Source of the DNA: an uncultured Bacteroidales bacterium
GTDB taxonomy: Bacteria; Bacteroidota; Bacteroidia; Bacteroidales; JAKIYJ01
Reading direction: 5' to 3'
Assembly (NCBI GenBank): GCA_964504265.1
Contig: CAZDEU010000002.1
Coordinates: 22,473 to 86,472 of the forward strand
DNA: 64,000 bases
The notes under the pieces are model-generated. The model worked only from the letters and a program-made list of their open reading frames with translations. It had not been told where the DNA came from and did not search any database. Each line of letters opens with the position of its first letter. The first letter of the stretch is position 1. Made by a program: the position numbers and the translations under genes. This document shows positions 3,636 to 36,873 of this stretch, piece after piece.

Positions 3636-3656
3636 ATTCTAGTGGAATTTATTTAA

Positions 3657-4231: not shown

Positions 4232-4313
4232 ATAAAAAATCGAATTTACCTACTGTACGATTCGATGATTTCAATCGATTCGAAGGAATTTTCTGCCAGA
4301 TACAAAGTATATA
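4232..4313 (+). repeat. degenerate direct repeat A, copy 1
   Basis: ATAAAAAATCGA ... GATTCGAAGGAATTTTCTGCCAGATACA aligns with copy 2 about 305 nt downstream. Confidence 0.6.
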
Positions 4314-4538
4314 CAACGGCGCCAATTAGTTACAATGATTAGATTAGCTTATGTAATTATACAGCAGTTAGTACTGATCATGCACCAAAAATTTTAAAAA
4401 TCTTACCAAAGTTTGACAACTAAATTTTACTTGCCATGTACATCACGCAGAAATTTCTTTCGAATCGAACTTAAAGTAAAGCTTGAAGTAAAATCATGAT
4501 CATTATATATAGCTACTTAAGCTAATATTATTTTTTTT

Positions 4539-4607
4539 ATAAAAAATCGATGCAGCTACGAAATCACTTTTTCACTTGATTCGAAGGATTTTCATGCTAG
4601 TTATACA
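4539..4607 (+). repeat. degenerate direct repeat A, copy 2
   Basis: ATAAAAAATCGA ... GATTCGAAGGATTTTCATGCTAGTTATACA. A third, weaker copy lies around 3925-3990. Confidence 0.6.
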
Positions 4608-4826
4608 TTATCTTATTTAACTGCAAGTAGTTACACTGGCTATAAAATGATTTATCAATCAGTCCACGCGTACGATATGCTTAACGATGCTATCTAGAAA
4701 GGTAGGCCTAGGCATAAAGTGACAATTATCTTAAGAAAATCAATTCCCAGATAGTTACGTGCATAGCTACCCTTGTAACTATTTAATACTGGCCGCATAA
4801 GAAAATACCCTGAGATATACAGATAA

Positions 4827-4880
4827 GTCTAAAAATAATTCCTAGTAGAATGCTAGATTCTTTATGGCTTAAATGCTAAC
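4827..4880 (+). repeat. direct repeat B, copy 1
   Basis: GTCTAAAAATAATTCCTAGTAGAATGCTAGATTCTTTATGGCTTAAATGCTAAC. Confidence 0.65.
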
Positions 4881-4973
4881 TCCGTCTGTGTAATAATAAG
4901 TTACAAGGGCAATGAATAAGATAACTAGCAATTTAAGCTCTGCCTCTAAATCTATGCAGCAGCACAATTATAT

Positions 4974-5026
4974 GTCTAAAATATTTTCCTAGGAGAATGC
5001 TAGTTCTTTTATGGCATTAATGCAAC
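4974..5026 (+). repeat. direct repeat B, copy 2
   Basis: GTCTAAAATATTTTCCTAGGAGAATGCTAGTTCTTTTATGGCATTAATGCAAC. About 85% identical to copy 1, 147 nt downstream. Confidence 0.65.
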
Positions 5027-5393
5027 ATATATAAATATCTATACATAATAAGTGTATAGCAGTTATTATATACTAACATGCATGCAACTACTTATGTATT
5101 TAGCATTTCTGAAAAATAATGCTAATTAGATTAAGTATTTCATGGTAAGTTGATTCTTAATTTTCCGATACGTGATGCAGGAAAGCTAATTCAGTACTTA
5201 AGTACTGAAATTATAATCAACTATTAACCAATCGACTAATCAATTTCATAACGTATCGTCTAACATGCGGAGATATCTTTGTTGCCGGCATGCTAATGTA
5301 GATATGGAAGAACCTATACTGATATAAAATAATTGTTAAATAATTAGGAATCAACAAATATATTCACTACATTTATCCTTTAAATTAAATAAT

Positions 5394-5627
5394 ATGCATG
5401 AAATTTCAATGACTGAGTTATGTGAAGAACATAACAAATTAATTGATGAACATAATGCTTTAAAAGCAAACTATGAATCATTAGAAGGAAAATTTGATAG
5501 AATGACTAAATTAGCTGAAATGGCAACTGATATAGCTATTGCAAAAGAAACATATATTCAAGCCCAATCTAATGAAATAGCTAGATTACATGCATTATTA
5601 CGTTTAGCTAATATACATTACATATGA
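5394..5627 (+). CDS. hypothetical coiled-coil protein (77 aa)
   Basis: Heptad-like, Glu/Lys/Ala-rich translation. Confidence 0.55.
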   Translation: MHEISMTELCEEHNKLIDEHNALKANYESLEGKFDRMTKLAEMATDIAIAKETYIQAQSNEIARLHALLRLANIHYI

Positions 5628-5782
5628 TAACATTCATCATTAAACTAGTAATAGGTATAATAATAGCAGCTATAGCAGTAACGCTATTCTTATGGATAAT
5701 ATTACCAATAATCTGTATAATAATTTTTGCTTTCCTACTAATAGGATTAATATATTTAATCATTAAACTATTAACAAGATGA
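5624..5782 (+). CDS. small hydrophobic membrane peptide (52 aa, not in ORF track)
   Basis: ATGA overlap with the previous stop and ATGA-type overlap with the next start. Translation is MITFIIKLVIGIIIAAIAVTLFLWIILPIICIIIFAFLLIGLIYLIIKLLTR. Confidence 0.5.
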   Translation: MITFIIKLVIGIIIAAIAVTLFLWIILPIICIIIFAFLLIGLIYLIIKLLTR

Positions 5783-6021
5783 AAACAAAACAAACAAAAG
5801 CTACTATATCATCAGTAGCAGTAATACTATTAATAGTATCATACATAATGTCATATGTAGTATTTAATCCAATAACAGTACTTACATATACATTAATAGC
5901 ATTATCAGTATTAACTGTATTAGCAACATTATTTGTTATCTACATTATACTAATAGCAAGTTATGTTGATTTTACTGAAGCTGCTGATGAACAATTTGAA
6001 TATCCTAGTACTAAATTCTAA
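5779..6021 (+). CDS. membrane protein (80 aa, two TM segments)
   Basis: Hydrophobic translation. The antisense track ORF 5608-5793 is considered a mirror artefact. Confidence 0.6.
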   Translation: MKTKQTKATISSVAVILLIVSYIMSYVVFNPITVLTYTLIALSVLTVLATLFVIYIILIASYVDFTEAADEQFEYPSTKF

Positions 6022-6062
6022 ATACTTAAGTAACTACTTTTTAATTAATATCTTTTTATTAT

Positions 6063-6221
6063 ATGCAAAAACAAAGCGTTACACTGGCATTACTATTCAT
6101 AATATTTATAGCAGTAACAACTATATTACCAATTAAAAATACAATAGTAGATGCTGGATATATAGTATTTGCTATAGCAAGTTTATCTATTGTATTAGCA
6201 AACTGGAAATACATAAAATAA
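6063..6221 (+). CDS. small hydrophobic membrane peptide (52 aa, not in ORF track)
   Basis: MQKQSVTLALLFIIFIAVTTILPIKNTIVDAGYIVFAIASLSIVLANWKYIK. This is the third consecutive small membrane ORF. Confidence 0.45.
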   Translation: MQKQSVTLALLFIIFIAVTTILPIKNTIVDAGYIVFAIASLSIVLANWKYIK

Positions 6222-6277
6222 CAGTATTGCTAGCCTACTTCGCTAACAAAATTTATTTAAAATAAATCAGATTTCTC

Positions 6278-6308
6278 TTGGATTTCTGATAATAGCATAC
6301 TATCTTTA
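6278..6308 (+). promoter_or_regulatory. Bacteroidota-type promoter (-33 TTG, 20-nt spacer, -7 TAtcTTTA)
   Basis: cTTGgatttctgataatagcatacTATCTTTA. It lies inside the 45-nt block 6261-6305, which is repeated exactly at 10309-10353. Confidence 0.55.
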
Positions 6309-6331
6309 TGGCATAATTAAAAACAAAGATT

Positions 6332-6565
6332 ATGCAAGCAAATATCGAAAACTTCAAAGAAATGTTAAATAAAGCAAATGGTAATAAAGTAGAAATGCAA
6401 AAAGCATTTGACAGAATTACTTCTTATTTAGCTTCTTCTGTATTGGGTAGAGATTTTAACGAAACAGTTGAAAGTTATTTAAACAGAAAGCCAAATATTA
6501 AAGAAATACATGACTGGTCAAAGAAAGTAATAATAAGTCCAAATTTCACAATAATAGCAATATAA
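6332..6565 (+). CDS. hypothetical protein (77 aa)
   Basis: ORF 24 nt after the -7 box. Confidence 0.6.
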   Translation: MQANIENFKEMLNKANGNKVEMQKAFDRITSYLASSVLGRDFNETVESYLNRKPNIKEIHDWSKKVIISPNFTIIAI

Positions 6566-6768
6566 TGAAAAAGATAATTGACATACCAGAATATATAGTA
6601 AAAGACCTTAAAAAATTAGCGGTTGATGAAAATGTTGATTTAAAAAACTACATTCAAAACAAGCTAATAAAAATAGTCGAATTATCAAAAGTTAAATATT
6701 GTACTTGTGATAAAAATACAGATGGCAGCCAAAATAAAATATGTGATGGTGATTGTCTGTTTCATTAA
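6565..6768 (+). CDS. hypothetical protein with Cys-rich C-terminus (67 aa)
   Basis: Start overlaps the previous stop. The C-terminus reads CTCDKNTDGSQNKICDGDC. Confidence 0.6.
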   Translation: MKKIIDIPEYIVKDLKKLAVDENVDLKNYIQNKLIKIVELSKVKYCTCDKNTDGSQNKICDGDCLFH

Positions 6769-6774
6769 TATGAC

Positions 6775-6895
6775 TTATAACGGTGAGTATTGGCGTTGTT
6801 GCCATCATAGAACTTAATTAATAACACTAAAATATAAAATTATGGAAAACTTATCAGAAAATACGAAAGGCAATAACGCTAATACTGTGTTATCG
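6775..6895 (+). repeat. attC-like imperfect inverted repeat E0 (121 bp)
   Basis: R'' is TTATAAC (6775-6781) and R' is GTTATCG (6889-6895). Arms GAGTATTGGCG (6785-6795) and CGCTAATACT (6877-6886) pair over 10 bp including one G.T. Confidence 0.55.
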
Positions 6896-7042
6896 GCTGG
6901 CTATTCTTACAAAATAGGCAAATTTCAAATAATACTTGATGAAGATACTGAAGAATTGAAAATAATAGTACACACCAACAAAGATAGGATGACGATAAAA
7001 CCAAATACGGATAATAGTTGCACTCTTATAGCTTGCCGATAA
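6842..7042 (+). CDS. cassette ORF, hypothetical (66 aa; start uncertain)
   Basis: The ATG at 6842 lies in the apical loop of E0, and the ORF reads through the E0 R' box. The stop TAA (7040-7042) is embedded in the E1 R'' box. Confidence 0.4.
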   Translation: MENLSENTKGNNANTVLSAGYSYKIGKFQIILDEDTEELKIIVHTNKDRMTIKPNTDNSCTLIACR

Positions 7043-7164
7043 CGTTTTGCATAAGACCAGTAAAGGAATGCGAGATATGAACTATCAAGATAAACAACAG
7101 TTTGAACGGGCTGTAATGCTGAAATTACCGATACAACCTTTATTGGTTTTATGCGGTGTTACCG
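7037..7164 (+). repeat. attC-like imperfect inverted repeat E1 (128 bp)
   Basis: R'' is CGATAAC and R' is GTTACCG. Arms TTGCATAAGACCA (7046-7058) and TGGTTTTATGCGG (7144-7156) pair over 13 bp including 3 G.T. Confidence 0.6.
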
Positions 7165-7229
7165 CCCGTTTTTATTAATCTTTAAATCAATTTATTATAA
7201 GCAAAAAACTCGAAATATTAAAACAATCA

Positions 7230-7685
7230 TTGGCGAAAAAAGAACAGCAATTAAACGCCAAACTTGACCAACATTTTGCAACCGTAAAACAAGCAAACGG
7301 GCAACCGCTTAACGACAAAAGAAACGAACAAGCTACATTAAACAAGTGGGAGCGACAAAATGAAAGTATTAGAACAATGCAAAAAAGCATTGAAGCGACT
7401 AAACAGGCAATTGAAATTGAAGAAGGCAAAATAAGAGGAGTTGAACACGCTAATACTTTTATACCTGCTGAAATTCAAAAGCTGGTTGAAACTGGAGAAC
7501 TAATTCAATGGCGAAAACACCCACATACATTTTTTGTTGCTGGAGTTGATAAGGCTCGAATTGTTTGGGATGAAAAACGCAAAGTAGTTGCCCATAAGTT
7601 TGTCAGTGAAATAACTATTCAAGAACAGCGGGCAAAATTTGTCAGAATATACAATCCGCTGAACGCTCTTTTAAATGGGCGGTAA
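7230..7685 (+). CDS. cassette ORF, hypothetical protein (151 aa)
   Basis: Visibly more G+C-rich than the backbone (38% in 7231-7290). The stop TAA (7683-7685) lies inside the E2 R'' box CGGTAAC. Confidence 0.65.
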   Translation: MAKKEQQLNAKLDQHFATVKQANGQPLNDKRNEQATLNKWERQNESIRTMQKSIEATKQAIEIEEGKIRGVEHANTFIPAEIQKLVETGELIQWRKHPHTFFVAGVDKARIVWDEKRKVVAHKFVSEITIQEQRAKFVRIYNPLNALLNGR

Positions 7686-7812
7686 CGGCTGCGGCTAAAC
7701 TGCGTTGCCGATTAAAACGCAGAAACTTATCAAATTACAACAATGGACGAAAGAGATTATAAAGCTATGAATAAGCACGAAAACGGCAATGAAGTTTTAG
7801 CCGTTGTTAGCT
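7680..7812 (+). repeat. attC-like imperfect inverted repeat E2 (133 bp)
   Basis: R'' is CGGTAAC (7680-7686) and R' is GTTAGCT (7806-7812). Arms are CGGCTAAA (7692-7699) and TTTAGCCG (7796-7803). Confidence 0.5.
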
Positions 7813-8003
7813 GCTGGGCTGTATTATTACAATGGACGACAGGGTGTGAGGCGGATGCAGAATCAACGGAAGTAAAAGCTATATTTATGACTAAACAACA
7901 GGCTGATGAATATTGCAAAATACTAAAGCCTAAAATAAAATGGCATCAATATTATCAGGGCTGCTTAGAAGTTGAAGAAGTGCCTTTCGAGCCTTGCAGC
8001 TAA
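7743..8003 (+). CDS. cassette ORF, hypothetical (86 aa as tracked; in-frame ATG at 7887 would give 38 aa)
   Basis: The first 23 codons overlap the right arm and R' box of E2, so the true start may be downstream. The stop TAA (8001-8003) is embedded in the E3 R'' box. Confidence 0.45.
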   Translation: MDERDYKAMNKHENGNEVLAVVSCWAVLLQWTTGCEADAESTEVKAIFMTKQQADEYCKILKPKIKWHQYYQGCLEVEEVPFEPCS

Positions 8004-8126
8004 CGTTGACGGTAGCAGAAGTACGGGACTTAACCGAACAAAGCTATCCAGTAACAATGACCTTAATAAAATGCAGTACACTAACATAACCACTAACACC
8101 CGTATTACTGCTACCGTGTGTTAGGC
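7998..8126 (+). repeat. attC-like imperfect inverted repeat E3 (129 bp)
   Basis: R'' is AGCTAAC and R' is GTTAGGC. In the arms GACGGTAGCAGAAGTACGGG (8008-8027) and CCCGTATTACTGCTACCGTG (8099-8118), 17 of 20 positions are Watson-Crick, one is G.T and two are mismatched. Confidence 0.65.
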
Positions 8127-8139
8127 AACGTTTTTAATT

Positions 8140-8349
8140 ATGGAAGATTTAGTAAAAGCATTTCAGATTTTTTTAAAGTATTCGGATGATAAATATCCGA
8201 CACATTGTGAACATGATTATTTATACGTAAATGTTCATCCTGACAAAGTTTCTCAGGAAGATAAAGCAGAGTTAGAAAAACTTGGATTTATCATTGATGG
8301 TGAGTATGGAGGTGATGGTTTTGGCTCATTTAGGTTCGGTAGCTGTTAA
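8140..8349 (+). CDS. cassette ORF, hypothetical protein (69 aa)
   Basis: Starts 14 nt after the E3 R' box (..TTTTTAATTATG). Confidence 0.6.
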   Translation: MEDLVKAFQIFLKYSDDKYPTHCEHDYLYVNVHPDKVSQEDKAELEKLGFIIDGEYGGDGFGSFRFGSC

Positions 8350-8354
8350 ATGTT

Positions 8355-8488
8355 GCCTAACGGTACTGCGCTATAAAATCGTGCGGGATTTCGAAGCGCA
8401 AAATTATCAACCGAGTAGAAAATAACAATAGTAGTAAACCGCTTGCATACACTCTAAAACCCGCATGTTTTATGAGCGCATGTTAGGC
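8355..8488 (+). repeat. attC-like imperfect inverted repeat E4 (134 bp)
   Basis: R'' GCCTAAC matches RYYYAAC exactly and R' GTTAGGC matches GTTRRRY exactly. Arms TGCGCT/ATAAAA/CGTGCGGG pair with CCCGCATG/TTTTAT/AGCGCA, with bulges. Confidence 0.7.
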
Positions 8489-8504
8489 ACTGTACTTTTT
8501 AATT

Positions 8505-8804
8505 ATGAATAGAGTTGAAGAAATAAGAGAAATATTAAGAGAATTTGTTGAATATGATAAGGGTAAGCGTTTGAGACAAGAACTTAAAGACATAGCAGAT
8601 AAAACATATATTCAAAAATACTCTGATAAGGAGCAGATTGATTTTTTAGATAGACATGAAGCTTCAATAAGAAGTTTACATGCTCAATCAACAAATTTTC
8701 CGTATTATCTCGAAATGTTTACCGTTTTAACTCAACATATTTATGCTGATAATATTAGGCAAATTATTGATAAAGGAATAGATATTGAACGGGCACGGTC
8801 TTAG
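8505..8804 (+). CDS. cassette ORF, hypothetical protein (99 aa)
   Basis: Starts 17 nt after the E4 R' box. Confidence 0.6.
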   Translation: MNRVEEIREILREFVEYDKGKRLRQELKDIADKTYIQKYSDKEQIDFLDRHEASIRSLHAQSTNFPYYLEMFTVLTQHIYADNIRQIIDKGIDIERARS

Positions 8805-8810
8805 TATTGT

Positions 8811-8906
8811 GCCTAACGGCTGGCGGTATGGTTATATGTGCCTATCTACTGCCTGTCAATTTACCACAAACTTTTAAAGGCACATTAATTATACCGCTTG
8901 TTATAA
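8811..8906 (+). repeat. attC-like imperfect inverted repeat E5 (96 bp, short loop)
   Basis: R'' is GCCTAAC and R' is GTTATAA. Arms are GCGGTAT..ATGTGCCT (8823-8843) and AGGCACAT..ATACCGC (8878-8897). Confidence 0.6.
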
Positions 8907-8928
8907 GCTGTATTAAAAATTTTTAGCT

Positions 8929-9168
8929 ATGGATGCAGAAATTTTAAATTACCCAACAGAAACAGGTAAACCAAGAAACAATTCAAAACTTGCTTATGTA
9001 GATTGCTGCATGAGGCTTATGGACTGGCATAGACCATTTGAAGAAATGAGTAACGATGACTTAGATAGCTTATATTTTGTAGCTTTCAAAAGTTGGGCTT
9101 ATCATTTAACACGACAGGCTTATATTGATTACTTAAATAAATACAGGATAGAACGCTGTCCGTGTTAA
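8929..9168 (+). CDS. cassette ORF, hypothetical protein (79 aa)
   Basis: ORF between E5 and E6. Confidence 0.6.
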   Translation: MDAEILNYPTETGKPRNNSKLAYVDCCMRLMDWHRPFEEMSNDDLDSLYFVAFKSWAYHLTRQAYIDYLNKYRIERCPC

Positions 9169-9172
9169 TTGC

Positions 9173-9304
9173 GTATAACGCTATTGCGGTATGAAATGAA
9201 GCGGTGAACGGGCTGCTAATGTATCAACCGACACAGAATTACAAGCGAGTGATTAACTTGCAAAATGTACTTAACCCGCTTTGTTTTATGACCGCTTGTT
9301 AGCG
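9173..9304 (+). repeat. attC-like imperfect inverted repeat E6 (132 bp)
   Basis: R'' is GTATAAC and R' is GTTAGCG. Arms GCGGTATGAAATGAAGCGG and CCGCTTTGTTTTATGACCGC pair with G.T pairs. Confidence 0.65.
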
Positions 9305-9332
9305 GTAGTTATTAATTTAAAATCATTTAATT

Positions 9333-9560
9333 ATGAAAGAACTACTTATCAAATTAAAAATAGTGCAAGTCGTATCAAATGAGCAACGACATAAAGAAGG
9401 ATTGAAAAGATTAGGTAAAGGTTATTTTAAAGCTTATCGACTTAACCCATTCAATCCGCTGAGTTATATCCTTGTAGTAGTAACAATTCCAGTTTTATTA
9501 CTTATGTACGGTTTTGTTGGCTCATTTGAAAAGGCAATCAATCCGTTTCGGTGGGATTAA
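9333..9560 (+). CDS. cassette ORF, small membrane protein (75 aa)
   Basis: Hydrophobic segment LSYILVVVTIPVLLLMYGFVG. Lies between E6 and E7. Confidence 0.6.
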   Translation: MKELLIKLKIVQVVSNEQRHKEGLKRLGKGYFKAYRLNPFNPLSYILVVVTIPVLLLMYGFVGSFEKAINPFRWD

Positions 9561-9564
9561 TTAC

Positions 9565-9693
9565 CGCTAACGGTGAGCGTATGAAATCGAAAGGGATTAG
9601 AAAGCATATCACTATCCCACGATAAAACGTTTATAGAAATCACAGCACAACGCATACCACTGACCCCCTTTTGTTTTATACGCTGTGTTATAT
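9565..9693 (+). repeat. attC-like imperfect inverted repeat E7 (129 bp)
   Basis: R'' is CGCTAAC and R' is GTTATAT. Arms are GCGTATGAAATCGAAAGGG and CCCTTTTGTTTTATACGC. Confidence 0.65.
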
Positions 9694-9792
9694 GCTGCTT
9701 TTTAATTAGTTACAATCAAAGCACGGAGTGGGTGCGGAGTGCGGAGTGATAAAATATTTTCACTTTCATTGAAAAATAATTGATTTAAACTA

Positions 9793-9822
9793 TTGTTAAT
9801 TCAAAAATAAACCTTATCTTTA
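9793..9822 (+). promoter_or_regulatory. Bacteroidota-type promoter (-33 TTG, 19-nt spacer, -7 TAtcTTTA)
   Basis: TATTGTTAATTCAAAAATAAACCTTATCTTTATG, 24 nt before ATG 9846. Confidence 0.5.
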
Positions 9823-9845
9823 TGTCATAATTAATACTTACAATT

Positions 9846-10028
9846 ATGAATGCAACGATTGAAAAATTTCAGAAACAACAAATTGAAAAGGCTAATTTCA
9901 TTAAAGATAAAGCTCAGAAAGAAATTGAATCTTTAGAAGATGAGATATTAAGATTGAAAAAACAAATAAACGCTCAAAAATCGATAGTAAAACAGGCAAA
10001 TAAAGATATTCAACATTATTCAGAATGA
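9846..10028 (+). CDS. hypothetical coiled-coil protein (60 aa)
   Basis: Lys/Glu/Gln-rich, heptad-like translation. Confidence 0.55.
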   Translation: MNATIEKFQKQQIEKANFIKDKAQKEIESLEDEILRLKKQINAQKSIVKQANKDIQHYSE

Positions 10029-10183
10029 AAGGCGGCAAAAGAACAGGTGCAGGGAGAAAACCTTGCACCGATAAAAAACAGCAAATGACAATCTATGTTT
10101 TAACTTCTCAAATCGAAAAGTTAGGCAAAGATGCAATTCGTCAAGTATGCGAAAAAGCTATCAACGAAGCGGTTTTAAAGTAG
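10025..10183 (+). CDS. small basic protein (52 aa, not in ORF track)
   Basis: ATGA overlap with the upstream stop. Translation is MKGGKRTGAGRKPCTDKKQQMTIYVLTSQIEKLGKDAIRQVCEKAINEAVLK. The last base of the stop TAG (10181-10183) is the first base of GCATATAAC (10183-10191). Confidence 0.5.
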   Translation: MKGGKRTGAGRKPCTDKKQQMTIYVLTSQIEKLGKDAIRQVCEKAINEAVLK

Positions 10184-10184
10184 C

Positions 10185-10285
10185 ATATAACTATTATATA
10201 ATTGAATTCCTTTATAACTAATTGATTATAAATGAAAAAGGTATATCAACTTTAGGAAATTTTAAAAATATTCTTAAAGTTAGGA
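10185..10285 (+). repeat. possible degenerate attC-like element E8 (101 bp)
   Basis: GCATATAAC (10183-10191) is the exact complement of GTTATATGC (9687-9695, the E7 R' box). An R'-like GTTAGGA lies at 10279-10285 and the loop motif TATCAAC at 10244-10250. The arms are AT-rich and only weakly paired. Confidence 0.3.
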
Positions 10286-10308
10286 ATTATTCACATATAA
10301 CAATTCAA

Positions 10309-10353
10309 AATAAATCAGATTTCTCTTGGATTTCTGATAATAGCATACTATCT
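10309..10353 (+). repeat. exact 45-nt copy of 6261-6305 (promoter block)
   Basis: AATAAATCAGATTTCTCTTGGATTTCTGATAATAGCATACTATCT is identical in both places. Here the -7 box is degraded to TATCTAAT. Confidence 0.85.
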
Positions 10354-10498
10354 AATAGATGCTTTTTTAAACTTGAAGAAGCAATTCTTTATGCCATTGG
10401 TAGTAATGTTGGTAAACGTAATGACACTACTTTGTTAGTTCATATCGACACTTTTGTAACAATGATAACGAAAGACTAATTATTGTTGAGTAGCAATT

Positions 10499-10524
10499 AA
10501 ACCAGCGTAACTGCTGGTTTTTTA
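10499..10524 (+). terminator. intrinsic terminator
   Basis: AACCAGC (10500-10506) / GCTGGTT (10513-10519) stem followed by TTTTT. Confidence 0.65.
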
Positions 10525-10539
10525 ATGATCACTCCATGC

Positions 10540-10559
10540 AGCGATAAGCGCTTATCGCT
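10540..10559. repeat. perfect 20-bp palindrome AGCGATAAGC|GCTTATCGCT
   Basis: The same half-sites (AGCGATAA ... TTATCGCT) recur at 11590-11609. Confidence 0.7.
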
Positions 10560-10614
10560 CTTATTTAGATCAATTATAAATAATACTACAATTCAAAAAT
10601 ATCTTGCAAAAAGC

Positions 10615-10645
10615 TTGTATATACAAATAAAATATATTACTTTTA
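10615..10645 (+). promoter_or_regulatory. Bacteroidota-type promoter (-33 TTG, 20-nt spacer, -7 TActTTTA) with no obvious ORF downstream
   Basis: aaaaGCTTGTATATACAAATAAAATATATTACTTTTA. Confidence 0.45.
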
Positions 10646-10666
10646 TACTAGTAAACTTTAAATCAA

Positions 10667-10728
10667 GGTATTGGGCAGGTATGACTATATATCAAATTAT
10701 TTGGCTATATGCATGCCTAGCCAATACC
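10667..10728 (+). ncRNA. candidate small RNA hairpin downstream of orphan promoter
   Basis: GGTATTGGGCAGG (10667-10679) is complementary to CCTAGCCAATACC (10716-10728) at 11 of 13 positions. It begins about 20 nt after the -7 box. Confidence 0.3.
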
Positions 10729-10887
10729 ACTACATGCAGTTTAATACTATAAATGTAAGAATAATTTTGCACATACACAAATAAAATAACAATTATTTTT
10801 ACAGCAGTACTAGCTTAAGCTACATCACTACACTTATTTAGAATTGATATAAATAACAAAATAATCGAAAAATAAATCAATAAAAGC

Positions 10888-10918
10888 TTGTGTATCTGGA
10901 AATAGCTTACTATCTTTG
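10888..10918 (+). promoter_or_regulatory. Bacteroidota-type promoter (-33 TTG, 20-nt spacer, -7 TAtcTTTG, exact consensus)
   Basis: aaaaGCTTGTGTATCTGGAAATAGCTTACTATCTTTG, 20 nt before ATG 10939. Confidence 0.65.
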
Positions 10919-10938
10919 GACTATTAAAATTAAACAAA

Positions 10939-11145
10939 ATGACACACTTAACTTATATTAAAATAGATAAACATAGAGCAAAATATAATGATGTTCTACG
11001 TAAAGGATTAGCTAAATTAAATATATCAATTGATATCAAATCATCAAAATATGGTAAAAATATTTATGTAATTAATTCAGTTGATGTATTTAAAGCTCAA
11101 AAGTTTTTACTAAGCATATCTTTAACAAACCCGCAATATATTTAA
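10939..11145 (+). CDS. hypothetical protein (68 aa)
   Basis: ORF after the promoter. Confidence 0.6.
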   Translation: MTHLTYIKIDKHRAKYNDVLRKGLAKLNISIDIKSSKYGKNIYVINSVDVFKAQKFLLSISLTNPQYI

Positions 11146-11171
11146 TTATTAATCATATAAATCTAAACAAA

Positions 11172-11384
11172 ATGAAAGCAAATTTAACATTAGCAGCACA
11201 AGAAGGTAAACTAAACTACATTCTTAGCCAATTATATGCATTAACAACCGAAGAAAAGTGCTATATAGCTGATAACTTATGTGATGAATTGGAGATCGAA
11301 CTAAACGAAGTTATTAAGTTACCTAGCAAGATCTTAGTTGTTACTGATAATTTATCTTCACAATTCAAAGAAAACGGCAAATAA
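11172..11384 (+). CDS. hypothetical acidic protein (70 aa)
   Basis: Preceded by the leader CATATAAATCTAAACAAAATG, which is repeated before the next ORF. Confidence 0.6.
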   Translation: MKANLTLAAQEGKLNYILSQLYALTTEEKCYIADNLCDELEIELNEVIKLPSKILVVTDNLSSQFKENGK

Positions 11385-11411
11385 CGTATTAACCATATAA
11401 ATCTAAACAAA

Positions 11412-11573
11412 ATGAAATACTACGAATGCAACGAATGCGGTAACACATTCACATCAAAAGAACAACATGTAAGCAATTGCCCAATCTGTGGTAGCAACTT
11501 AGAGCATGTCAATCAGATTTCAAAAGAATATTATGATGCTTTAAGTATCGCTTGTGCTGACATTGAAGATTAG
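11412..11573 (+). CDS. zinc-ribbon protein (53 aa, not in ORF track)
   Basis: MKYYECNECGN...CPICGS (CxxC-x17-CxxC), with the same leader CATATAAATCTAAACAAAATG. Confidence 0.55.
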   Translation: MKYYECNECGNTFTSKEQHVSNCPICGSNLEHVNQISKEYYDALSIACADIED

Positions 11574-11579
11574 AATAAG

Positions 11580-12600
11580 TTGAAAATACAGCGATAATAA
11601 CTTATCGCTAATAACGGTTGCAGCTTAACAGTAAATTAGCACATAGCTACAAATTCATAAGAATGGCAATATACTTAAAAAGCAAACTTAGCCAGGGAAT
11701 ATTATAAGTTCAGCCGTTATTTTTTTATTATTAGTATACTTAATCGTTATTTTTATAAGTTTGAGATACAAATTAATAAATAGCAAAACAAATTGTTTCA
11801 GCAATGCACGCTGGTAATTTATAAGTCAAAAAATAAGTTCGTAGAGTTTGCAGAGAATTATTTATGCGGGTTTGAGGTGAATGTGGAAATGGGCAGGTGG
11901 TCTAATGTATACGTCAAATAAGAATCATTCTTGTTTAGGAATAATTCTTTACGCTTCACGTAGCTGCTTTATTTCCGCTTGCAGTAATTTTCGCTTGATT
12001 AGCTTGTATCTGCAAGTTTCTATTTTCACTTATTTCTATTTACTTATTGCTTAACATATAATACTTACCAGCAATTATAGTTTCTATTCTTTGCAATATT
12101 TTAACATATAAACCACCGTTTATATAAGTATCTGTTTATATGTTGACTGCTGGTTATACTGCCAGTTAGATTTTGGTAATTACATTGCTGAGTATGCTTA
12201 AGTTTTTATTAATTTTTATTTGATTTTATTTGTATATTATACTTACATTTGTTTTTAAATAAATTAATATTATGAAAATACATTATTAGAGTATTGATAA
12301 CAATGATAGCTCTTTAGAAAGTTACTGTGAGTATTTAATTAGGATAAGATTAGTTGTATTACTGTTACTAATTATGATACAGATACAGTTATATGGTTTG
12401 CCAGTAAAGCTATTATAGTTACGGATTGTATTTAAGGTTGAATATTATTTTATGCTAGCGCATAGTAGCAAAAATTATTAGTATAATTAGCATGTATTGC
12501 TTAAATAAAAATGATAATAATGCTAGTTACATGCTTAAAATATATGTCAAATTGTTTGTGCAAATCGAATTAATTTCTTATTTTTGAGATATTAAATTTT
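11580..12600. other. 1.0-kb ORF-free AT-rich tract with short iterated motifs
   Basis: TTTCTATT occurs at 12017, 12033 and 12081. GTTTATAT occurs at 12118 and 12134. There are hairpins at 11590-11609 and at 11978-11984/12010-12016. Confidence 0.6.
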
Positions 12601-12605
12601 TGAAA

Positions 12606-12791
12606 ATGAATAATCAAAATGCATGGCGTTATATTGATAATGCAGAAAACTTGGCAGCAATGCCAAACGACAGAGATTTTGAGGTATTGTTTGATGATAC
12701 TACAATACTCAAATTTAGTTGTGATAATTTTCCTATTGCTGAGATTGTTACTTGGCGTGAATTAAAAAATAGTACATATGGAAAGTTTTGA
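12606..12791 (+). CDS. hypothetical protein (61 aa from ATG)
   Basis: The track ORF begins at TTG 12600; the first ATG is at 12606. Confidence 0.5.
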   Translation: MNNQNAWRYIDNAENLAAMPNDRDFEVLFDDTTILKFSCDNFPIAEIVTWRELKNSTYGKF

Positions 12792-12906
12792 ATGTTTAAA
12801 TTGTGATAATGTGTGGAAGGATCAACATCCTCATAAACCATTATATTGCCCGAAATGCAAGAGTACTTTAGTTGTAACAAATGAAGAATACAATGAAACT
12901 GACTAA
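12778..12906 (+). CDS. zinc-ribbon protein (42 aa, not in ORF track)
   Basis: MESFECLNCDNVWKDQHPHKPLYCPKCKSTLVVTNEEYNETD (CxxC-x16-CxxC). Confidence 0.45.
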   Translation: MESFECLNCDNVWKDQHPHKPLYCPKCKSTLVVTNEEYNETD

Positions 12907-13588
12907 AGTAAAATGTTGCAAAGATGATTCCGGCCATTGGTATGTGATACCTAATGATATTGCTGTTGATTTCTATAAGGAATTAAATCATATTATTAAA
13001 ACTGAATCTGATGAATTATGTGCATTATTTGATGCTAAATATGGTGCATACATGACAGGTGGTGATCCTGTTGAAGTAAATATGCGTTTAATTGATATTT
13101 TATGGGCTGCATTTGGTGGAACATATACAAATGGATTTAAGTTACTTATTCCGCAAGTAAGGCTTATTCAGGGCGATGGAATTGATATTGAAATGATTGA
13201 AAAAATACTTTCAGCAGCTAAAGCAAAAGGATATTGTGCTGATAATTGGGTATTCGGCTCAGGTGGTGGATTACTTCAGAAATTTGACAGGGATACACAA
13301 AATTTTGCTATTAAAGCTTCATATGGTGAACGCATTGTTAATGGCAATATTGAATTCTTTAATTTAGTTAAAGAACCAATTACTTCTAAAGGAAAACGTT
13401 CTAAAGCAGGTAAATTGAAACTTCAAAAAGGGGTTAATCAATACTTAACATTGAGTAGTGCAAAAGAAACTGATGTTCAATTTAATAGTTATGTTGACTA
13501 CATGGATGTTGTATTTGATAACGGAAAATTAGTAAGAGAGCAAACATTTGACGAAATTAAAAAAATAATAGAAAAAGAATTTATTTAA
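12881..13588 (+). CDS. NAMPT (NadV)-family C-terminal fragment fused to an unrelated N-terminus; likely gene remnant
   Basis: From GGDPVEV onward the protein matches the C-terminal third of nicotinamide phosphoribosyltransferase (RLIQGDGI, FGSGGGLLQKFDRDTQNFAIKAS, KEPITSKGKRSKAGKL). About 300 N-terminal residues of the family are absent. Confidence 0.65.
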   Translation: MKNTMKLTKVKCCKDDSGHWYVIPNDIAVDFYKELNHIIKTESDELCALFDAKYGAYMTGGDPVEVNMRLIDILWAAFGGTYTNGFKLLIPQVRLIQGDGIDIEMIEKILSAAKAKGYCADNWVFGSGGGLLQKFDRDTQNFAIKASYGERIVNGNIEFFNLVKEPITSKGKRSKAGKLKLQKGVNQYLTLSSAKETDVQFNSYVDYMDVVFDNGKLVREQTFDEIKKIIEKEFI

Positions 13589-25924: not shown

Positions 25925-27322
25925 TTAAATTATAATGTGTAAGTTATTACGCGGTCTTGTTGTTGCTGTATAGAATATCTGGTTTGATTCTTTTTGTTTT
26001 CTATTTGATTGAATATCATTCCAAATTACAATTGCATTATCATATGTGCTACCCTGGCTTTTGTGGCAAGTAATACAATAATTATAATTAACATCAGCAA
26101 ATTGCTCTTGAAAATGATAATATTCTTTCCACTTTTTAGTTGCATTAAATGAGCCTTGCCGTTCTCTTAATGCTTCTTTTTTTAAAATTTCTATAAATTC
26201 ATTATATTTTTTTGCACTTGATTCATGAATTATTTTTAATTTTGTTTCTAATTCAGCACCAAAGAATGATTCATATACAACAGTTGCATTATATACAGTT
26301 AATTTATTTCCTTTGAAATTAACATACTCATCATTTATAGTATATTTACTAACTTCAACTTCATCATTTGTATTAAGTATTGTTTGTTTTGATTTCTTGT
26401 CAATAATAGGACGATTTAATATTAACTTTTCATTTTTAGTTATTTTACTATTAATATCACCATATGTAATGTATCTTATTATTTCATTATATCTATCTAC
26501 TTCGTTATTAGTCCATGCAAGAACTTTAGCATAATCTGAATCTTTTTTAAACTTTGCTGAATTAAAATATATGTCTAGTAATTTAGCAACACTTTCTAAA
26601 TTTTCATCACTTCTATTTCTTATAAATTCAACATTACCAATAGCACTATTTAAATTGCTAATTGTTTGTGGAATTACAATTTGACCATCAACACGATTTC
26701 TTACCCAATGTGCAAAATCTATAATAGGATTGCCTTCATTTTGCCTAACAATCTTATTTAATTGAACAGTTTCAATTCCATATTTTTTTTGTGATTGTTC
26801 ATCAAATGGAATAGATGATGTATGGTTGATTGGCGGAATTTGCGCTGAGTCTCCAACAAATAATAATTTTAATCCATATCCTTGCACGTAATCAAGTAAC
26901 ATTCTAAAAATGTTATCATCTAACATAGAAGCTTCATCTAATATCAAATAACGATAATTTTCAAGATTACATTTAGAACCAGGAATTCTTGTAAACGTTT
27001 GTTTGCCAAACCCATCTATATTTTCACGTAACCCAAGTATACTATGAATTGTAGAATATTGTAACTTTGTATCTCTTATTCCGCAAGCATTTCTTAATAT
27101 TTTCACAGATTTATTAGTAGGACCGCAAAAGGCAATTTGTTGATTTTTATCTAACAAATATTGTACTATTTTTGATACAACATACGTTTTTCCAGTTCCT
27201 GCTGCACCATTTAATAAGAACATTCCTTTATGTTGACCTTCAAAGAAATCCGCAATTAATTTTGCAGCTTCATATTGGTCTTCGTTGAAATCATATTTTA
27301 TGCGTAATTCTTCAATCGTCAT
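25925..27322 (-). CDS. SF1 RecD/Dda-like DNA helicase
   Basis: Walker A GAAGTGKT, Walker B YLILDEASM, and the C-terminal motif ITCHKSQGSTYD. Confidence 0.85.
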   Translation of the reverse strand: MTIEELRIKYDFNEDQYEAAKLIADFFEGQHKGMFLLNGAAGTGKTYVVSKIVQYLLDKNQQIAFCGPTNKSVKILRNACGIRDTKLQYSTIHSILGLRENIDGFGKQTFTRIPGSKCNLENYRYLILDEASMLDDNIFRMLLDYVQGYGLKLLFVGDSAQIPPINHTSSIPFDEQSQKKYGIETVQLNKIVRQNEGNPIIDFAHWVRNRVDGQIVIPQTISNLNSAIGNVEFIRNRSDENLESVAKLLDIYFNSAKFKKDSDYAKVLAWTNNEVDRYNEIIRYITYGDINSKITKNEKLILNRPIIDKKSKQTILNTNDEVEVSKYTINDEYVNFKGNKLTVYNATVVYESFFGAELETKLKIIHESSAKKYNEFIEILKKEALRERQGSFNATKKWKEYYHFQEQFADVNYNYCITCHKSQGSTYDNAIVIWNDIQSNRKQKESNQIFYTATTRPRNNLHIII

Positions 27323-27347
27323 TTATTATGCTATTTTATTATTAAAT

Positions 27348-28559
27348 TTATAAAGAATTAATCTTTATTGGATTAAGCACTAATCCTATATCGGTTGGCA
27401 CGTATGCATCACCGAATTCTTTTCTTCCAATGTTGAGACTACCGTTAATGTCTGCGTTAATTAATAAATTTTTTGAAGTTTTAAATAATCCTCTTTTAAT
27501 GCGATTACCTAAATAATTTTCATGTTTACAAATTTTTTCATTATCTAAAGCAGAACACTTCGAAGTGTAATTTTCAGTTATAACTTTGCAATTAATTCCT
27601 TCCAATTTACATTTATACTCTATCATTTTGATAAATGTTAAATGCGGAATACTTACAAATTGCTGGTTATTTCTCTTTCCTAAATTTACTTCTTGCTTCC
27701 ATTCAGGGTTATAACCTACTACTAAACTACTTACATTATTTTTTGCTAAATAATTGACTATAATTCTGGAAGATTTATGAAGATAGTCTTTGATTTTGTT
27801 ATTTCGCTTTGTTGTAAAGTTTGTAAGTTTTTTACTTGTTTTCTTTTTGTGATTTTTTTCTAAACTACATTGTATTTTTGCTTTATGTTTATTATAATAT
27901 TGATTAATTGATTTTAATGGTTTGCCATTAATTATTATTGCATTATTGTTATTAAATGTAAGAGTTGCCAAATTATTAATACCTAAATCTATTGCTGAAT
28001 AATTATTGTTTGTAATTAATTCTTTTTCAGGAACTTCATATACAACTTCTATAGTGTAGTTGCCAGATTTAGGAATAATTCTAACTTCTTTTATTTTTGT
28101 TGTTATGTTTGTTTTTATTGGTTGTAGATTAGTTTTTTTTGGAAAATGAACAAACCCATTTTTTAAAATTTTAGTATTAAATCCTGAAAAAATTAGAATA
28201 TTTCTGCCTTTTAATTTATCTTTATATTTTGGAAATTTTGGACAACCATTTAACGATGTTTTATCCTTTTTATATTTTTTTATTAATGCAAAGAATGATT
28301 TAATATTATGATCTAATAATAATAAAATTTGTTGAGAAACTTGTGAATTTAGTTTTCTATAATCATTAAATTGTTCTTCTTTATTTTTCAGTATTTTTTC
28401 AATTGCATGATATCTTAAAGTTTTGCCAGTTAATAAATAATGTTGCTTTATTTCATATAAAGCTTGATTATAAAGATTTTTAGATAGAAAGCATAATGCA
28501 TCAATTTGTTTCCAAGATTGGTGATGTTTTGATATATTGTGTTGTTCTACTAAAATCAT
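27348..28559 (-). CDS. tnpB: TnpB-like RNA-guided nuclease (IS200/IS605 OrfB, IS1341-type; no tnpA)
   Basis: RuvC-I SAIDLGINNLATL; VVGYNPEWKQEVNLGKRNNQQF; ENYTSKCSALDNE; and GNRIKRGLFKTSKNLLINADINGSLNIGRK, the characteristic C-terminal RuvC-III block. The canonical CxxC pairs of the Zn finger are not present. Confidence 0.85.
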   Translation of the reverse strand: MILVEQHNISKHHQSWKQIDALCFLSKNLYNQALYEIKQHYLLTGKTLRYHAIEKILKNKEEQFNDYRKLNSQVSQQILLLLDHNIKSFFALIKKYKKDKTSLNGCPKFPKYKDKLKGRNILIFSGFNTKILKNGFVHFPKKTNLQPIKTNITTKIKEVRIIPKSGNYTIEVVYEVPEKELITNNNYSAIDLGINNLATLTFNNNNAIIINGKPLKSINQYYNKHKAKIQCSLEKNHKKKTSKKLTNFTTKRNNKIKDYLHKSSRIIVNYLAKNNVSSLVVGYNPEWKQEVNLGKRNNQQFVSIPHLTFIKMIEYKCKLEGINCKVITENYTSKCSALDNEKICKHENYLGNRIKRGLFKTSKNLLINADINGSLNIGRKEFGDAYVPTDIGLVLNPIKINSL

Positions 28560-28580
28560 ACTTATATATAATTTTTATTT

Positions 28581-28598
28581 ACATATAAGTATGTATTT
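28581..28598 (-). promoter_or_regulatory. conserved upstream motif (minus strand AAATACATACTTATATGT); candidate middle/late promoter
   Basis: 22 nt upstream of the tnpB ATG. Member of the ACATAYWTAT family (see finding). A second copy lies at 28692-28706. Confidence 0.4.
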
Positions 28599-28720
28599 AA
28601 ATAAAATTTTATAATAAATTTTGAAAACAATTATATACAAGAATTATTACAATATTTATATATTTTTGCAATTATTTTTATTAATAATCCAAGATAAGTA
28701 TATCACAAAAGTGAATTCAA

Positions 28721-28753
28721 TAAAAAACCCATGCAAATAGGATCACATGGGTT
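28721..28753 (-). terminator. intrinsic terminator (minus strand)
   Basis: AACCCATG (28726-28733) / CATGGGTT (28746-28753) stem, followed on the minus strand by TTTTTT. Lies downstream of stop 28782. Confidence 0.7.
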
Positions 28754-28781
28754 AAAGAATATTTGACTTCTTTTTGCTATT

Positions 28782-28970
28782 TTATTTATTTTTTAATAAT
28801 TCATTTCCTTTTGCTGTTGTATAATAGCTATAACCATGACCAGAATGATATTTTTCTCTAATATAGCCATTTTTAATAAGTTCATCTAAAATTTTATCCG
28901 GTATTTTATTAAGAACATCATGTTTTGCAAAAATATCAATTGTGCTTTTTGATGCATCATATCCTATCAA
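28782..28970 (-). CDS. hypothetical protein, possibly winged-helix (62 aa; TTG start in track, start uncertain)
   Basis: LIKNGYIREKY...YYTTAKGNELL resembles a wHTH wing. Confidence 0.4.
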   Translation of the reverse strand: MIGYDASKSTIDIFAKHDVLNKIPDKILDELIKNGYIREKYHSGHGYSYYTTAKGNELLKNK

Positions 28971-29133
28971 CCTTTTTAATTTTTGCAGCTTTATAAAAAT
29001 TTTTAAGCCAATTTAGTGATGTTGATGATAATGAAGATTCTTTAATTATATCAATTAATTTTATCATTATTTTCATTTATTTTTTGAATTTCTTCTTTAA
29101 TAATTTGTATTAGTTCTGATTTTTTCATTATTT

Positions 29134-29451
29134 TTATTTATTTTTAATAATACTCATAAAATCATGAGCATCTGCATGATTCATATGGTAATCATGTTTT
29201 GCAAAATTTTTATCTTCGAATTCTTTTTGTTTTTGTCTATGAAATTTTGCAGCATCTTTATGATCTTTCGAAGTATAATCTTTATGATTACTTTTAAAAC
29301 TACTAGTTGGATTTAAACCACCTCTATCATAATTAGCTATAGCATTACCACCATATATGGCTTTTCCTGATTTGGTGTGGCCAATTACTTTTCCGCCGCG
29401 GCTACCTTCGCCTGTTTTAGCTTCTTTAATTATATCAATTAATTTTATCAT
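29134..29451 (-). CDS. hypothetical basic/His-rich protein (105 aa)
   Basis: ORF. Its first 10 codons and 5 upstream nt are duplicated exactly at 29038-29072. Confidence 0.55.
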   Translation of the reverse strand: MIKLIDIIKEAKTGEGSRGGKVIGHTKSGKAIYGGNAIANYDRGGLNPTSSFKSNHKDYTSKDHKDAAKFHRQKQKEFEDKNFAKHDYHMNHADAHDFMSIIKNK

Positions 29452-29834
29452 TATTTAACAGTAAATTTATTAAGTGTTCTTGATGATATTTTATCTATAT
29501 TATACCCCAGCAATACTGAAATAGGATAAATACCCATTGATAGAATATCAAATCCTGCTAAAGTAAAGTTTAATCCAGCATCTTTATAAAATCTCAACCA
29601 TAAAAAAGTTACAATTGCATTTATCAATAATGTAATAAATTTATTTACAACATTATTTCTCCACCAGTAACTCCAAGAAAATTTATGAGGACTTTTCTTG
29701 CTATTAACAATTCCTTCTCTAGTATTTTTTGCCCAAAATAAAACTGCACCAATGATGCTAAATATATAGCATACGATAAGTGTTGTAGTTGTTAAATTTT
29801 GTCCTAATAATTCATGAATAATTGTAGTTTTCAT
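29451..29834 (-). CDS. membrane protein (127 aa, 3-4 TM segments)
   Basis: Hydrophobic segments LIVCYIFSIIGAVLFWA, FITLLINAIVTFLWL and ILSMGIYPISVLLGY. Confidence 0.6.
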   Translation of the reverse strand: MKTTIIHELLGQNLTTTTLIVCYIFSIIGAVLFWAKNTREGIVNSKKSPHKFSWSYWWRNNVVNKFITLLINAIVTFLWLRFYKDAGLNFTLAGFDILSMGIYPISVLLGYNIDKISSRTLNKFTVK

Positions 29835-35661: not shown

Positions 35662-36873
35662 TTAAAATTCAAAAAATGTTTTAATACTTTCTTTATCACT
35701 TACATCAGTAGCATCAGCACTGATTTTCAAATATATATTTTTGTATTTTTCATACACTTCAAGTGGTTTATTTACACCCTCAAACATTTCTTTGATACTA
35801 CAATAAACTTGCCACCAATCATTGTTGAAAACTTCTTTAATTGCTTGGTCATCTGAATCTATAATTGTATTAATTTTCTTTATTGCATCTAAAAATACAT
35901 ATAGATTATGCAAAGTAGTTATTTTAACAGAACGTCTATCCCATGGAGCTAAATCAACCCCAACAGTATGGCCTTTACATGCAATACAATCAAGCAAACA
36001 TGGTAAACTAGCATCGTTATCATATGTTACACTGCCATCTTTTGGAAAATATAATGACTTCCAAGTTAATTTATCCCAATTAAATCCATAATAAAATGTT
36101 CCATAATTAGTTGCTCTACTTGGCGAACTGCTATCAGTCGTTAATACTATTTTATGGCTAAATCTTTTATTAACAAACTTTTGCATTATAGCAAGCATTA
36201 ACAAATGGTCTATCCCCGTTATGCCTAAATAATGAATCCATTTATTTTTTGGGTTATCAAGTTCACCGTTTTCAAGTAATAATGCCATTGTAAATGCCAT
36301 TCTTTTTATATCACGGCAATTTGATGGAGCCCAACCTTGGAAATCAAATCCTTTAACTGCTTTGTACCACGCAACATATTCAGCTTCATTTGACGAACTT
36401 CCTTGCAACACATTTAAAAAATCTGTTTTACCTGATTGTTTCTTTTCAAATATTTTAAAATTTTCTAAACTAATATCAAGTGCTTCATTAAATCTTCCTA
36501 AATAATTTAAACGTGGCGGAATATCTAAGTTCATAGCAATATCTGAATTAGTTTCTAACCATTCAAATATTTCATCACGTAATAATGTTGACCATTTTAA
36601 AGCACCAGTTGCTATTTGATATCCACCACTATCACCCATTACAAGTGAATTCTCTAATCCCCATGTTTTTCGAAAAGTCTTTTCTTTATAATTATGGCCT
36701 GCTGTTGTAAGATAAAATTTATATCTCCATGCTTCAGGCATATCATCTGAATAATATCGAATTGGTATTTTATTATTAACATCTAATGGATTAATAATTT
36801 CATTAAGTTTTAGCCATTGGCGCATTCCACCAGTAGACATTGATGGAAAGTAAATAAATTTATGTTTATTCAT
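35662..36873 (-). CDS. dpdA: tRNA-guanine transglycosylase-family enzyme, DpdA-like (7-deazaguanine DNA base exchange)
   Basis: GDSGGYQ (the TGT catalytic DSGGFQ motif) and a Zn site CLLDCIAC...TLHNLY (CxxxCxxC-x25-H). The phage context points to DNA rather than tRNA as the substrate. Confidence 0.75.
   Translation of the reverse strand: MNKHKFIYFPSMSTGGMRQWLKLNEIINPLDVNNKIPIRYYSDDMPEAWRYKFYLTTAGHNYKEKTFRKTWGLENSLVMGDSGGYQIATGALKWSTLLRDEIFEWLETNSDIAMNLDIPPRLNYLGRFNEALDISLENFKIFEKKQSGKTDFLNVLQGSSSNEAEYVAWYKAVKGFDFQGWAPSNCRDIKRMAFTMALLLENGELDNPKNKWIHYLGITGIDHLLMLAIMQKFVNKRFSHKIVLTTDSSSPSRATNYGTFYYGFNWDKLTWKSLYFPKDGSVTYDNDASLPCLLDCIACKGHTVGVDLAPWDRRSVKITTLHNLYVFLDAIKKINTIIDSDDQAIKEVFNNDWWQVYCSIKEMFEGVNKPLEVYEKYKNIYLKISADATDVSDKESIKTFFEF

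Follow-up and report, generated by a model that had tools for sequence, protein, structure and literature searches.

In the stretch of DNA analysed here (64,000 nucleotides (nt), positions 22,473 to 86,472 of contig CAZDEU010000002.1 from an uncultured Bacteroidales bacterium, assembly GCA_964504265.1; hereafter the window), a phage contig with 28% GC that the protein index gives as 89 kb long, we found a single tnpB gene in the 5' leader of a Dda/PIF1-like superfamily 1 (SF1) helicase gene. Judged by sequence comparison, tnpB is an insertion in this leader, because two related alleles (L058 and L059) have no tnpB at the same site. The inserted element is ~1.36 kb long (~27328-28683) and TnpB is its sole product. 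The reading we lean towards, with slightly better than even confidence, is that this is a non-autonomous TnpB/omega-RNA element that is driven by phage promoter-like motifs and could home into TnpB-less alleles.

The filled allele is present in the window and in L057, a 5.6-kb contig from another run that is identical to the window, and the empty allele is present in L058, which comes from a syntenic 60-kb contig, and in L059 (79% and 81% helicase identity, respectively). In both empty alleles the order is terminator, TTTTTTATTGAATT..., ATACTTAT, a 19-nt leader and the helicase ATG. The preliminary description of this DNA had proposed a comparison with related phages that lack the insertion, and these two alleles show that tnpB is not fixed at the locus. 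In the window, the element interrupts the helicase leader 5 nt ahead of the ATG, downstream of the helicase's own promoter-like motif, and it now splits the helicase gene (25925-27322, minus strand; open reading frame (ORF) call and profile match) from that motif. The tnpB stop codon is separated from the helicase ATG (27322) by 25 nt, as first described. The terminator said to lie upstream is also there: an intrinsic-terminator-like hairpin of the upstream gene (28726-28753, minus strand) is kept in L058, where base changes on both arms preserve pairing. The reconstructed empty site reads ...GGATTAT followed across the junction by AATAAATGACGATTG, and the L058 allele reads TTTATT followed by AATAAATGACAATTG; the predicted empty junction is CTTGGATTATAATAAATGACG and the predicted circle junction is AAAATAGCAT-TAATAAAAAT. 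Exact-protein look-ups returned only the identical contig L057, with no match for a 105-amino-acid (aa) neighbour. We found no close relative of the window phage in INPHARED or IMG/VR, including a helicase scan of IMG/VR, and a flank-pattern scan of IMG/VR for an empty allele gave chance matches only. The interval between GroEL and the helicase otherwise differs between the window and L058. In this group of phages it is hypervariable accessory DNA; in L058 (449-9873), the stretch from the clamp-loader genes to the helicase encodes Tad3, Cpn10/Cpn60, a radical-SAM protein and a C39 peptidase.

The tnpB ORF (27348-28559, minus strand) encodes 403 aa, and the claim that it is a full-length TnpB is borne out by its matches to Pfam OrfB_IS605 (86 bits, 2e-24; cut-off 30.5), to Pfam Cas12f1-like_TNB (6e-10) and to NCBIfam guided_TnpB (177 bits; cut-off 100), all of which pass the curated thresholds. 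The curated IS607_TnpB model gives the window TnpB just 17 bits, and the protein falls in PHROG 506, "transposase". When we searched the PDB using phmmer with the single protein there was no match, and a profile search was required. An AlphaFold2 model with 41 homologues as input has a mean pLDDT (predicted local distance difference test score) of 85, and in Foldseek this model matched Cas12f, ISDra2 and ISFba1 TnpB and Fanzor2 with E values of 1e-11 to 1e-15 (matches include 8h1j, 8exa and Cas12f). A second 403-aa ORF in the window (35662-36873) was checked as a further copy and is not a TnpB. The absence of tnpA from the window, as originally stated, held up: we found no serine-recombinase tnpA by tblastn (best E 6.4), and no Y1 tnpA in a weaker tblastn search, which used an IS608 TnpA, had no positive control and covered the window and 106 of the fetched loci.

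To be set beside the fold is the active site, in which we found neither the RuvC D-E-D triad at its canonical positions nor the C4 zinc finger that lies between RuvC-II and RuvC-III. In an alignment of 41 sequences (51-67% identity), D191 (IDLG), E329 (ENYTSKC) and D370 (NADIN, of the form NADxN) are invariant. A profile alignment to ISDra2 TnpB and AsCas12f places the canonical RuvC-II Glu at G282 or N284 (VVG282YN284). The preliminary description had named missing catalytic residues as a result that would count against it; D191 and D370 are kept, whereas the canonical RuvC-II Glu is missing and the relocated E329 is found instead. E329 is six residues ahead of C335 (E329-N-Y-T-S-K-C335), which is the sole cysteine that the former zinc finger has retained. 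Neither CxxC pair is left in the window TnpB or in its 40 aligned relatives, so the statement that it lacks the canonical CxxC...CxxC holds across the whole clade. The Ealt arrangement is defined by two features, loss of the canonical Glu and a Glu located six residues ahead of the first zinc-finger Cys, and the window TnpB has both. The catalytic site is therefore of the rearranged (Ealt) type, with a D-Ealt-D triad that is probably intact. The relocated Glu has been described in Fanzors and in a TnpB clade (PMC10711439, PMC13565253), for TnpB clades with a rearranged RuvC-II activity is predicted, with some clades reported as virus-specific, and zinc-finger losses are known in some TnpB branches (PMC10691335). 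Two other identities were considered and dropped. The TnpB is not a pro-Fanzor or Fanzor, since its RuvC-I reads IDLG (D191-L-G) rather than DPG, and it is not a nuclease-dead repressor of the TldR type, as D191, E329 and D370 are invariant.

We scanned 185,579 species genomes for TnpB relatives. The cellular relatives, at most 49% identical, come from cyanobacteria, Chloroflexota, Asgard archaea and Firmicutes, often with multiple copies per genome. In L184, a 190-aa MerR-HTH (helix-turn-helix) serine recombinase ends exactly at the tnpB start, and with this protein as the query a serine-recombinase tnpA was found directly upstream of tnpB in 21 of ~190 fetched loci; Helicobacter phage matches also adjoin a resolvase gene. 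The serine-recombinase tnpA genes beside related tnpB genes, together with their absence from the window, indicate at the level of sequence that this TnpB lineage is IS607-type, not IS605, and that the window copy is non-autonomous. It follows from IS607-family membership that the element ends and the target-adjacent motif (TAM) should obey serine-recombinase logic. Closest of all are relatives at 50-67% identity, every one of which is solo and found on a phage-like contig, with sheath, methyltransferase or GIY-YIG genes as neighbours, and matches to phage solo tnpB genes include Bacillus phage G gp662 and Lak megaphages.

These relatives bear on a reading that we regard as unlikely, in which the element is an idle passenger that landed once through a host IS607 TnpA acting in trans, is kept since its removal would need a precise deletion and the helicase relies on read-through, and encodes a TnpB of no use to the phage. 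The missing tnpA is what this reading expects, and the insertion is known only in the window and the identical L057. Base composition also speaks for it: the GC content of tnpB (23.6%) is the lowest of 22 large window genes, and tnpB alone among them has a negative coding-strand GC skew, while its GC content at third codon positions is typical. tnpB is thus a mild compositional outlier, which fits an acquired gene largely adapted to phage composition. However, the ORF is intact with all catalytic positions conserved, and the solo TnpB clade stays intact in varied phage contexts, which points to selection having acted on the protein in phages over the long term.

At the right end of the element, the last 66 nt of the tnpB ORF form three hairpins (HP0, HP1 and HP2), and this architecture recurs in relatives with different stem sequences. 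HP0 (27393-27413, minus strand) lies inside the 3' end of the ORF and has compensatory changes at two pairs among the window, L109, L105, L103 and L017. HP1 (27370-27386, minus strand) is the GGATTA-gtgct-TAATCC hairpin that had been placed about 20 nt before the stop; between the end of its 3' arm and the stop codon there are 19 nt, and the hairpin covaries across relatives (RNAalifold, 20 sequences: 5 pairs, 2 changed on both sides). HP2 (TAAAGA/TCTTTA; 27351-27367, minus strand) ends at the stop codon, and relatives have hairpins with unrelated stem sequences at the same position. As HP2 falls out of register across subgroups in MAFFT, we used an anchored hairpin-enrichment test, and found a stem of at least 6 bp ending at most 3 nt from the stop in 26% of 88 loci as compared to 4.6% of 1,444 control positions. 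These data support the view that the 3' end of tnpB carries conserved structure, as would be expected of an omega-RNA.

Beyond the stop codon, the copies of cellular multi-copy elements, when compared, place the right end 15-54 nt past the stop, after ...AACTAT. In the phage clade, the right-end motif is A(A/T)A(G/A)CAT and sequences diverge straight after it: the end reads AAAATAGCAT in the window, AAATAGCAT in L060, AAAGCAT in L071 and GAAACAT in L103/L105, and the motif closes the conserved sequence in all of these and in L104, L109, L110 and L017. It is found within 60 nt after the stop in 43 of 88 loci and in 27 of 249 control windows. The conserved terminal motif therefore sets the right end of the window element at 27328, with ATTTAATAATAAAATAGCAT (27328-27347, minus strand) as its tail. 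The epsilon-crAss-like group (L034, L020, L014, L015, L068, L097 and L098) is a subfamily with another right-end terminus: its members share sequence to ...TATAATCACCT, ~47 nt past the tnpB stop, and then diverge, like Asgard copies that end in AATAACCT.

With the right end at 27328 and the published architecture of IS607/IS605 omega-RNAs (PMC10690162, PMC10711439), the predicted omega-RNA guide/target is AATAAATGACGATTGAAGAA (27308-27327, minus strand), that is, helicase positions -5 to +15, in a register uncertain by 1-2 nt. The preliminary description had expected a guide matching the helicase leader or first codons, and the predicted guide agrees with this. Among 13 related phage elements there are 5 whose inferred right end falls -3 to +5 nt from the start codon of a co-oriented downstream gene (window 27323-27328, L110:2887-2892, L103:5311, L105:3627-3633 and L017:5256-5258). 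In such a position, the predicted guide corresponds to the first codons of the neighbour, whose leader is then provided by the right end.

At the other end, we compared the window with the empty sites of L058 and L059 and obtained a left end (LE) of ~124 nt and 10% GC (28560-28683, minus strand). Similarity to both empty sites is solid as far as ATACTTAT (28694). The 11-mer TTATTAATAAA, common to the window and the L058 leader, hints that the flank reaches ...CTTGGATTAT (28684), an extension that is not significant against low-GC controls. TTAT at 28684-28687 (minus strand), directly 5' of LE, is the candidate TAM/crossover site, in line with the left junctions of relatives, and TTAT at 28694-28697 (minus strand), inside ATACTTAT, is the alternative for the second left-end option, so that either option (28683 or 28693) follows TTAT. 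In relatives, the sequence before the left junction is GTAT in cellular elements (copy comparison), GTAT in L060 and TTTAT in L103/L105. The inferred junctions of the window element both carry AT (TTAT on the left and GCAT on the right), as a serine-recombinase crossover would leave. We dropped the idea that the left-end region duplicates, in degenerate form, the leader and start of the helicase gene, which was marginal in one test (rank 19 of 5116 windows) and not significant against low-GC genomic controls. Reporting loci with z>4, we found flanking direct repeats that stand out in L060 and L103 and less so in a crAss-like group, with none significant in the window. In L060 (1640-3050), a related TnpB element lies between 48-nt imperfect direct repeats (z 10.8). 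Of the two copies, the upstream one has GTAT at its end and codes for the C-terminus of an adjacent 442-aa ORF, the downstream one begins straight after the right-end motif, and a search for homologues found none; the L060 element was probably inserted between two tandem-repeat units.

Next to this left end we looked at the promoter-like motifs. Upstream of tnpB the core ATACTTAT is present twice, at 28585-28592 and 28694-28701, with a spacing of 109 nt. Of its 14 matches in the window, 13 are on the coding strand, and the extended motif TTGACATAyWTAT precedes about a dozen minus-strand genes at a distance of 17-70 nt. Two copies of ACATAYWTAT had been reported upstream of tnpB; both sites are there, but only the 28585 copy matches exactly, and the 28694 copy reads ATATACTTAT. 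The 28694-28706 copy (GTGATATACTTAT, minus strand) is the helicase's own motif because it is conserved in the empty alleles. The 28585-28594 copy (ACATACTTAT) is inside the left end and belongs to an inverted repeat with 21-nt arms that includes the tnpB start-codon region (28551-28599, minus strand; repeat I7 of an inverted-repeat search). Thus, the proposal that the element carries the phage's own motif stands for the internal copy, whereas the other copy is pre-existing flank. The interval between tnpB and the helicase has no copy of the promoter-like motif, and the helicase must therefore be transcribed through the element.

Two ATACTTAT copies at this spacing upstream of tnpB, in a GroEL-helicase interval that varies so much among relatives, are also what one would expect of a promoter-flanked gene cassette, brought in, as morons or PeSL cassettes are, when repeated phage promoter motifs recombined, so that its ends would not be transposon ends. 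We consider this origin very unlikely: the right-end terminal motif is common to elements in unrelated contexts and to multi-copy cellular IS607 elements, the right junction has no copy of the promoter motif, and the left junction ends in TTAT, as in relatives.

The internal motif overlaps the start-codon hairpin, tnpB is solo, and the right end abuts a start codon in the 5 of 13 relatives listed above. These observations would fit a domesticated function, either an exclusion weapon that cuts the helicase start of related phages without copying itself or an RNA-guided regulator of the helicase start region, and competitor killing by homing endonucleases is known in phages (PMC13565253). We nevertheless find such a function quite unlikely. 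Presence and absence at differing loci across phages looks mobile rather than fixed, the intact nuclease triad speaks against a TldR-like repressor role, and the resident target has no TAM, without which the complex is not expected to bind at its own locus.

In the mobile-element reading that we favour, an IS607-family TnpB/omega-RNA unit would have inserted at a [G/T]TAT site, having come in either with the help of a TnpA acting in trans or out of another phage by recombination. Transcription would start from the motifs at 28694-28706 and 28585-28594 and run through tnpB into the helicase, and the 3' part of this transcript would fold as the omega-RNA scaffold, with the 16-20 nt past 27328 as the guide. 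The TnpB-omega-RNA complex would then cut genomes in which TTAT abuts AATAAATGACGATTGA, that is, TnpB-less alleles in a co-infecting relative or the site left after excision. The resident copy would be spared, since the element keeps TAM and target apart and its right end is GCAT, not TTAT. If the break were then repaired by recombination with the filled allele, the element would be copied along with neighbouring markers, as an RNA-guided analogue of intronless homing. An IS607 TnpB has been demonstrated to drive homing (PMC10690162).

Several results weigh against this reading. The LE outer boundary is ambiguous by 10 nt (28683 or 28693), and the similarity that supports it is within noise for DNA of 10% GC. 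IS607 elements typically end in GG and their TAMs are G-rich (PMC13565253), unlike the window clade, which ends in AT. The scan with omega-RNA models that had been suggested at the outset came out negative: Rfam over 26500-29500 gave no omega-RNA match at E<=10, only the terminator mis-scored as CyaR and two chance snoRNA matches. The minimum free energy of the 240-nt 3' region is unexceptional (z -1.8), and third-codon-position identity at the 3' end is modestly raised (0.81 as compared to ~0.65). We found no empty allele of the window's own lineage, and L058 and L059 fit the predicted guide and TAM register poorly: the guide mismatches the L058 allele at 3 of 20 positions, with the TAM offset by 1 nt, and the L059 allele at 5 of 20. 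Because of these mismatches in both empty alleles, the alleles do not demonstrate that homing occurs. In addition, as the phage has no tnpA, there is no excision to repair and homing would matter only in co-infection.

A broader proposal, which we advance tentatively and hold to be somewhat unlikely, is that the window element belongs to a transposase-free TnpB lineage that is adapted to phages and spreads among co-infecting phages solely by RNA-guided cutting and recombination. Such a lineage would prefer [G/T]TAT at the start codons of conserved genes, with the neighbour's first codons as the guide and the right end as the neighbour's new leader. The downstream gene would then depend on read-through, and omega-RNA maturation and translation of the neighbour would be mutually exclusive for each transcript.

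Phage-borne solo TnpBs are already described in epsilon crAss-like phages (PMC11054128) and cyanophage A-1(L) (bioRxiv 10.64898/2026.02.14.705889), and the window element is a well-resolved further example, not a new system. Like these, phage G gp662 and the Lak copies, all collected in PHROG 506, it is solo, sits in a genome of lytic type and is patchy among relatives; unlike them, it has a definable insertion site, empty alleles, a right end and a specific predicted guide. With IS607 TnpB elements (CboIStron TnpB and ISXfa1; PMC10690162, PMC10711439) it shares relatives that pair TnpB with a serine-recombinase TnpA and an omega-RNA expected to overlap the tnpB 3' end and the right end; the published role of such elements is in homing/retention. 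IS607 elements also have no terminal inverted repeats, no target duplication and matching dinucleotides at the two junctions, which may hold for the window element, given AT at both of its inferred junctions, the left one uncertain by 10 nt. It departs from them in having no tnpA, in its AT ends and [G/T]TAT TAM-like junction in place of GG ends and G-rich TAMs, and in having no Rfam match, hence none to the RAGATH-18-type RNA of some IS607 TnpBs. With Ealt TnpBs (the RIIr clades of Altae-Tran et al., 2023, PMC10691335; the D-phi-G/Ealt clade of Yoon et al., 2023, PMC10711439) it shares a replaced canonical Glu (G282/N284 in the window), the invariant Glu six residues before the first zinc-finger Cys and NADxN at RuvC-III, and some of their branches are reported as virus-specific. 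The D-phi-G/Ealt clade is sister to pro-Fanzors and Fanzors (PMC10711439), and the window TnpB differs from pro-Fanzors in having DLG instead of DPG and has also lost both CxxC pairs.

The demonstrated role of TnpB is transposon rescue after TnpA-mediated excision, which raises the question of why intact solo TnpBs persist in lytic phages. Seg and Mob, the free-standing homing endonucleases of T4-like phages, carry out intronless homing and marker exclusion. The window element resembles them as a selfish nuclease gene between conserved phage genes whose predicted target is a conserved replication gene of element-less relatives; in contrast to theirs, its recognition would be by RNA guide and TAM, not by protein, and the analogy is functional only. 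By combining a filled allele, two related empty alleles, a right end, a 20-nt predicted guide on the helicase start, a candidate TAM and a rearranged active site without a zinc finger, the locus makes RNA-guided intronless homing directly testable. A compact (403 aa) predicted nuclease of the Ealt type with an AT-rich candidate TAM may also interest tool developers.

We also made some observations apart from the element. The sub-threshold Rfam match to CyaR/RyeE at 28721-28809 (minus strand; 27 bits as compared to a gathering score of 47) is the terminator hairpin with its T-run and no small RNA. On L110 (3287-5626), a contig with a 59%-identical solo TnpB, a Cas3-like HD plus DEAD helicase is encoded two genes downstream. 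In window positions 1-13000, small plus-strand ORFs (with starts at 2166, 3321, 6332, 9846 and 10939) are each preceded by AAAGCTTGTGTA-N11/12-TAGC(T/A)TACTATCTTT(A/G). This motif fits the Bacteroidota promoter type with TTG at -33 and TAnnTTTG at -7, which suggests an early region that may be read by host RNA polymerase in a Bacteroidota host; the motif of the minus-strand module (TTGACATAyWTAT) is different.

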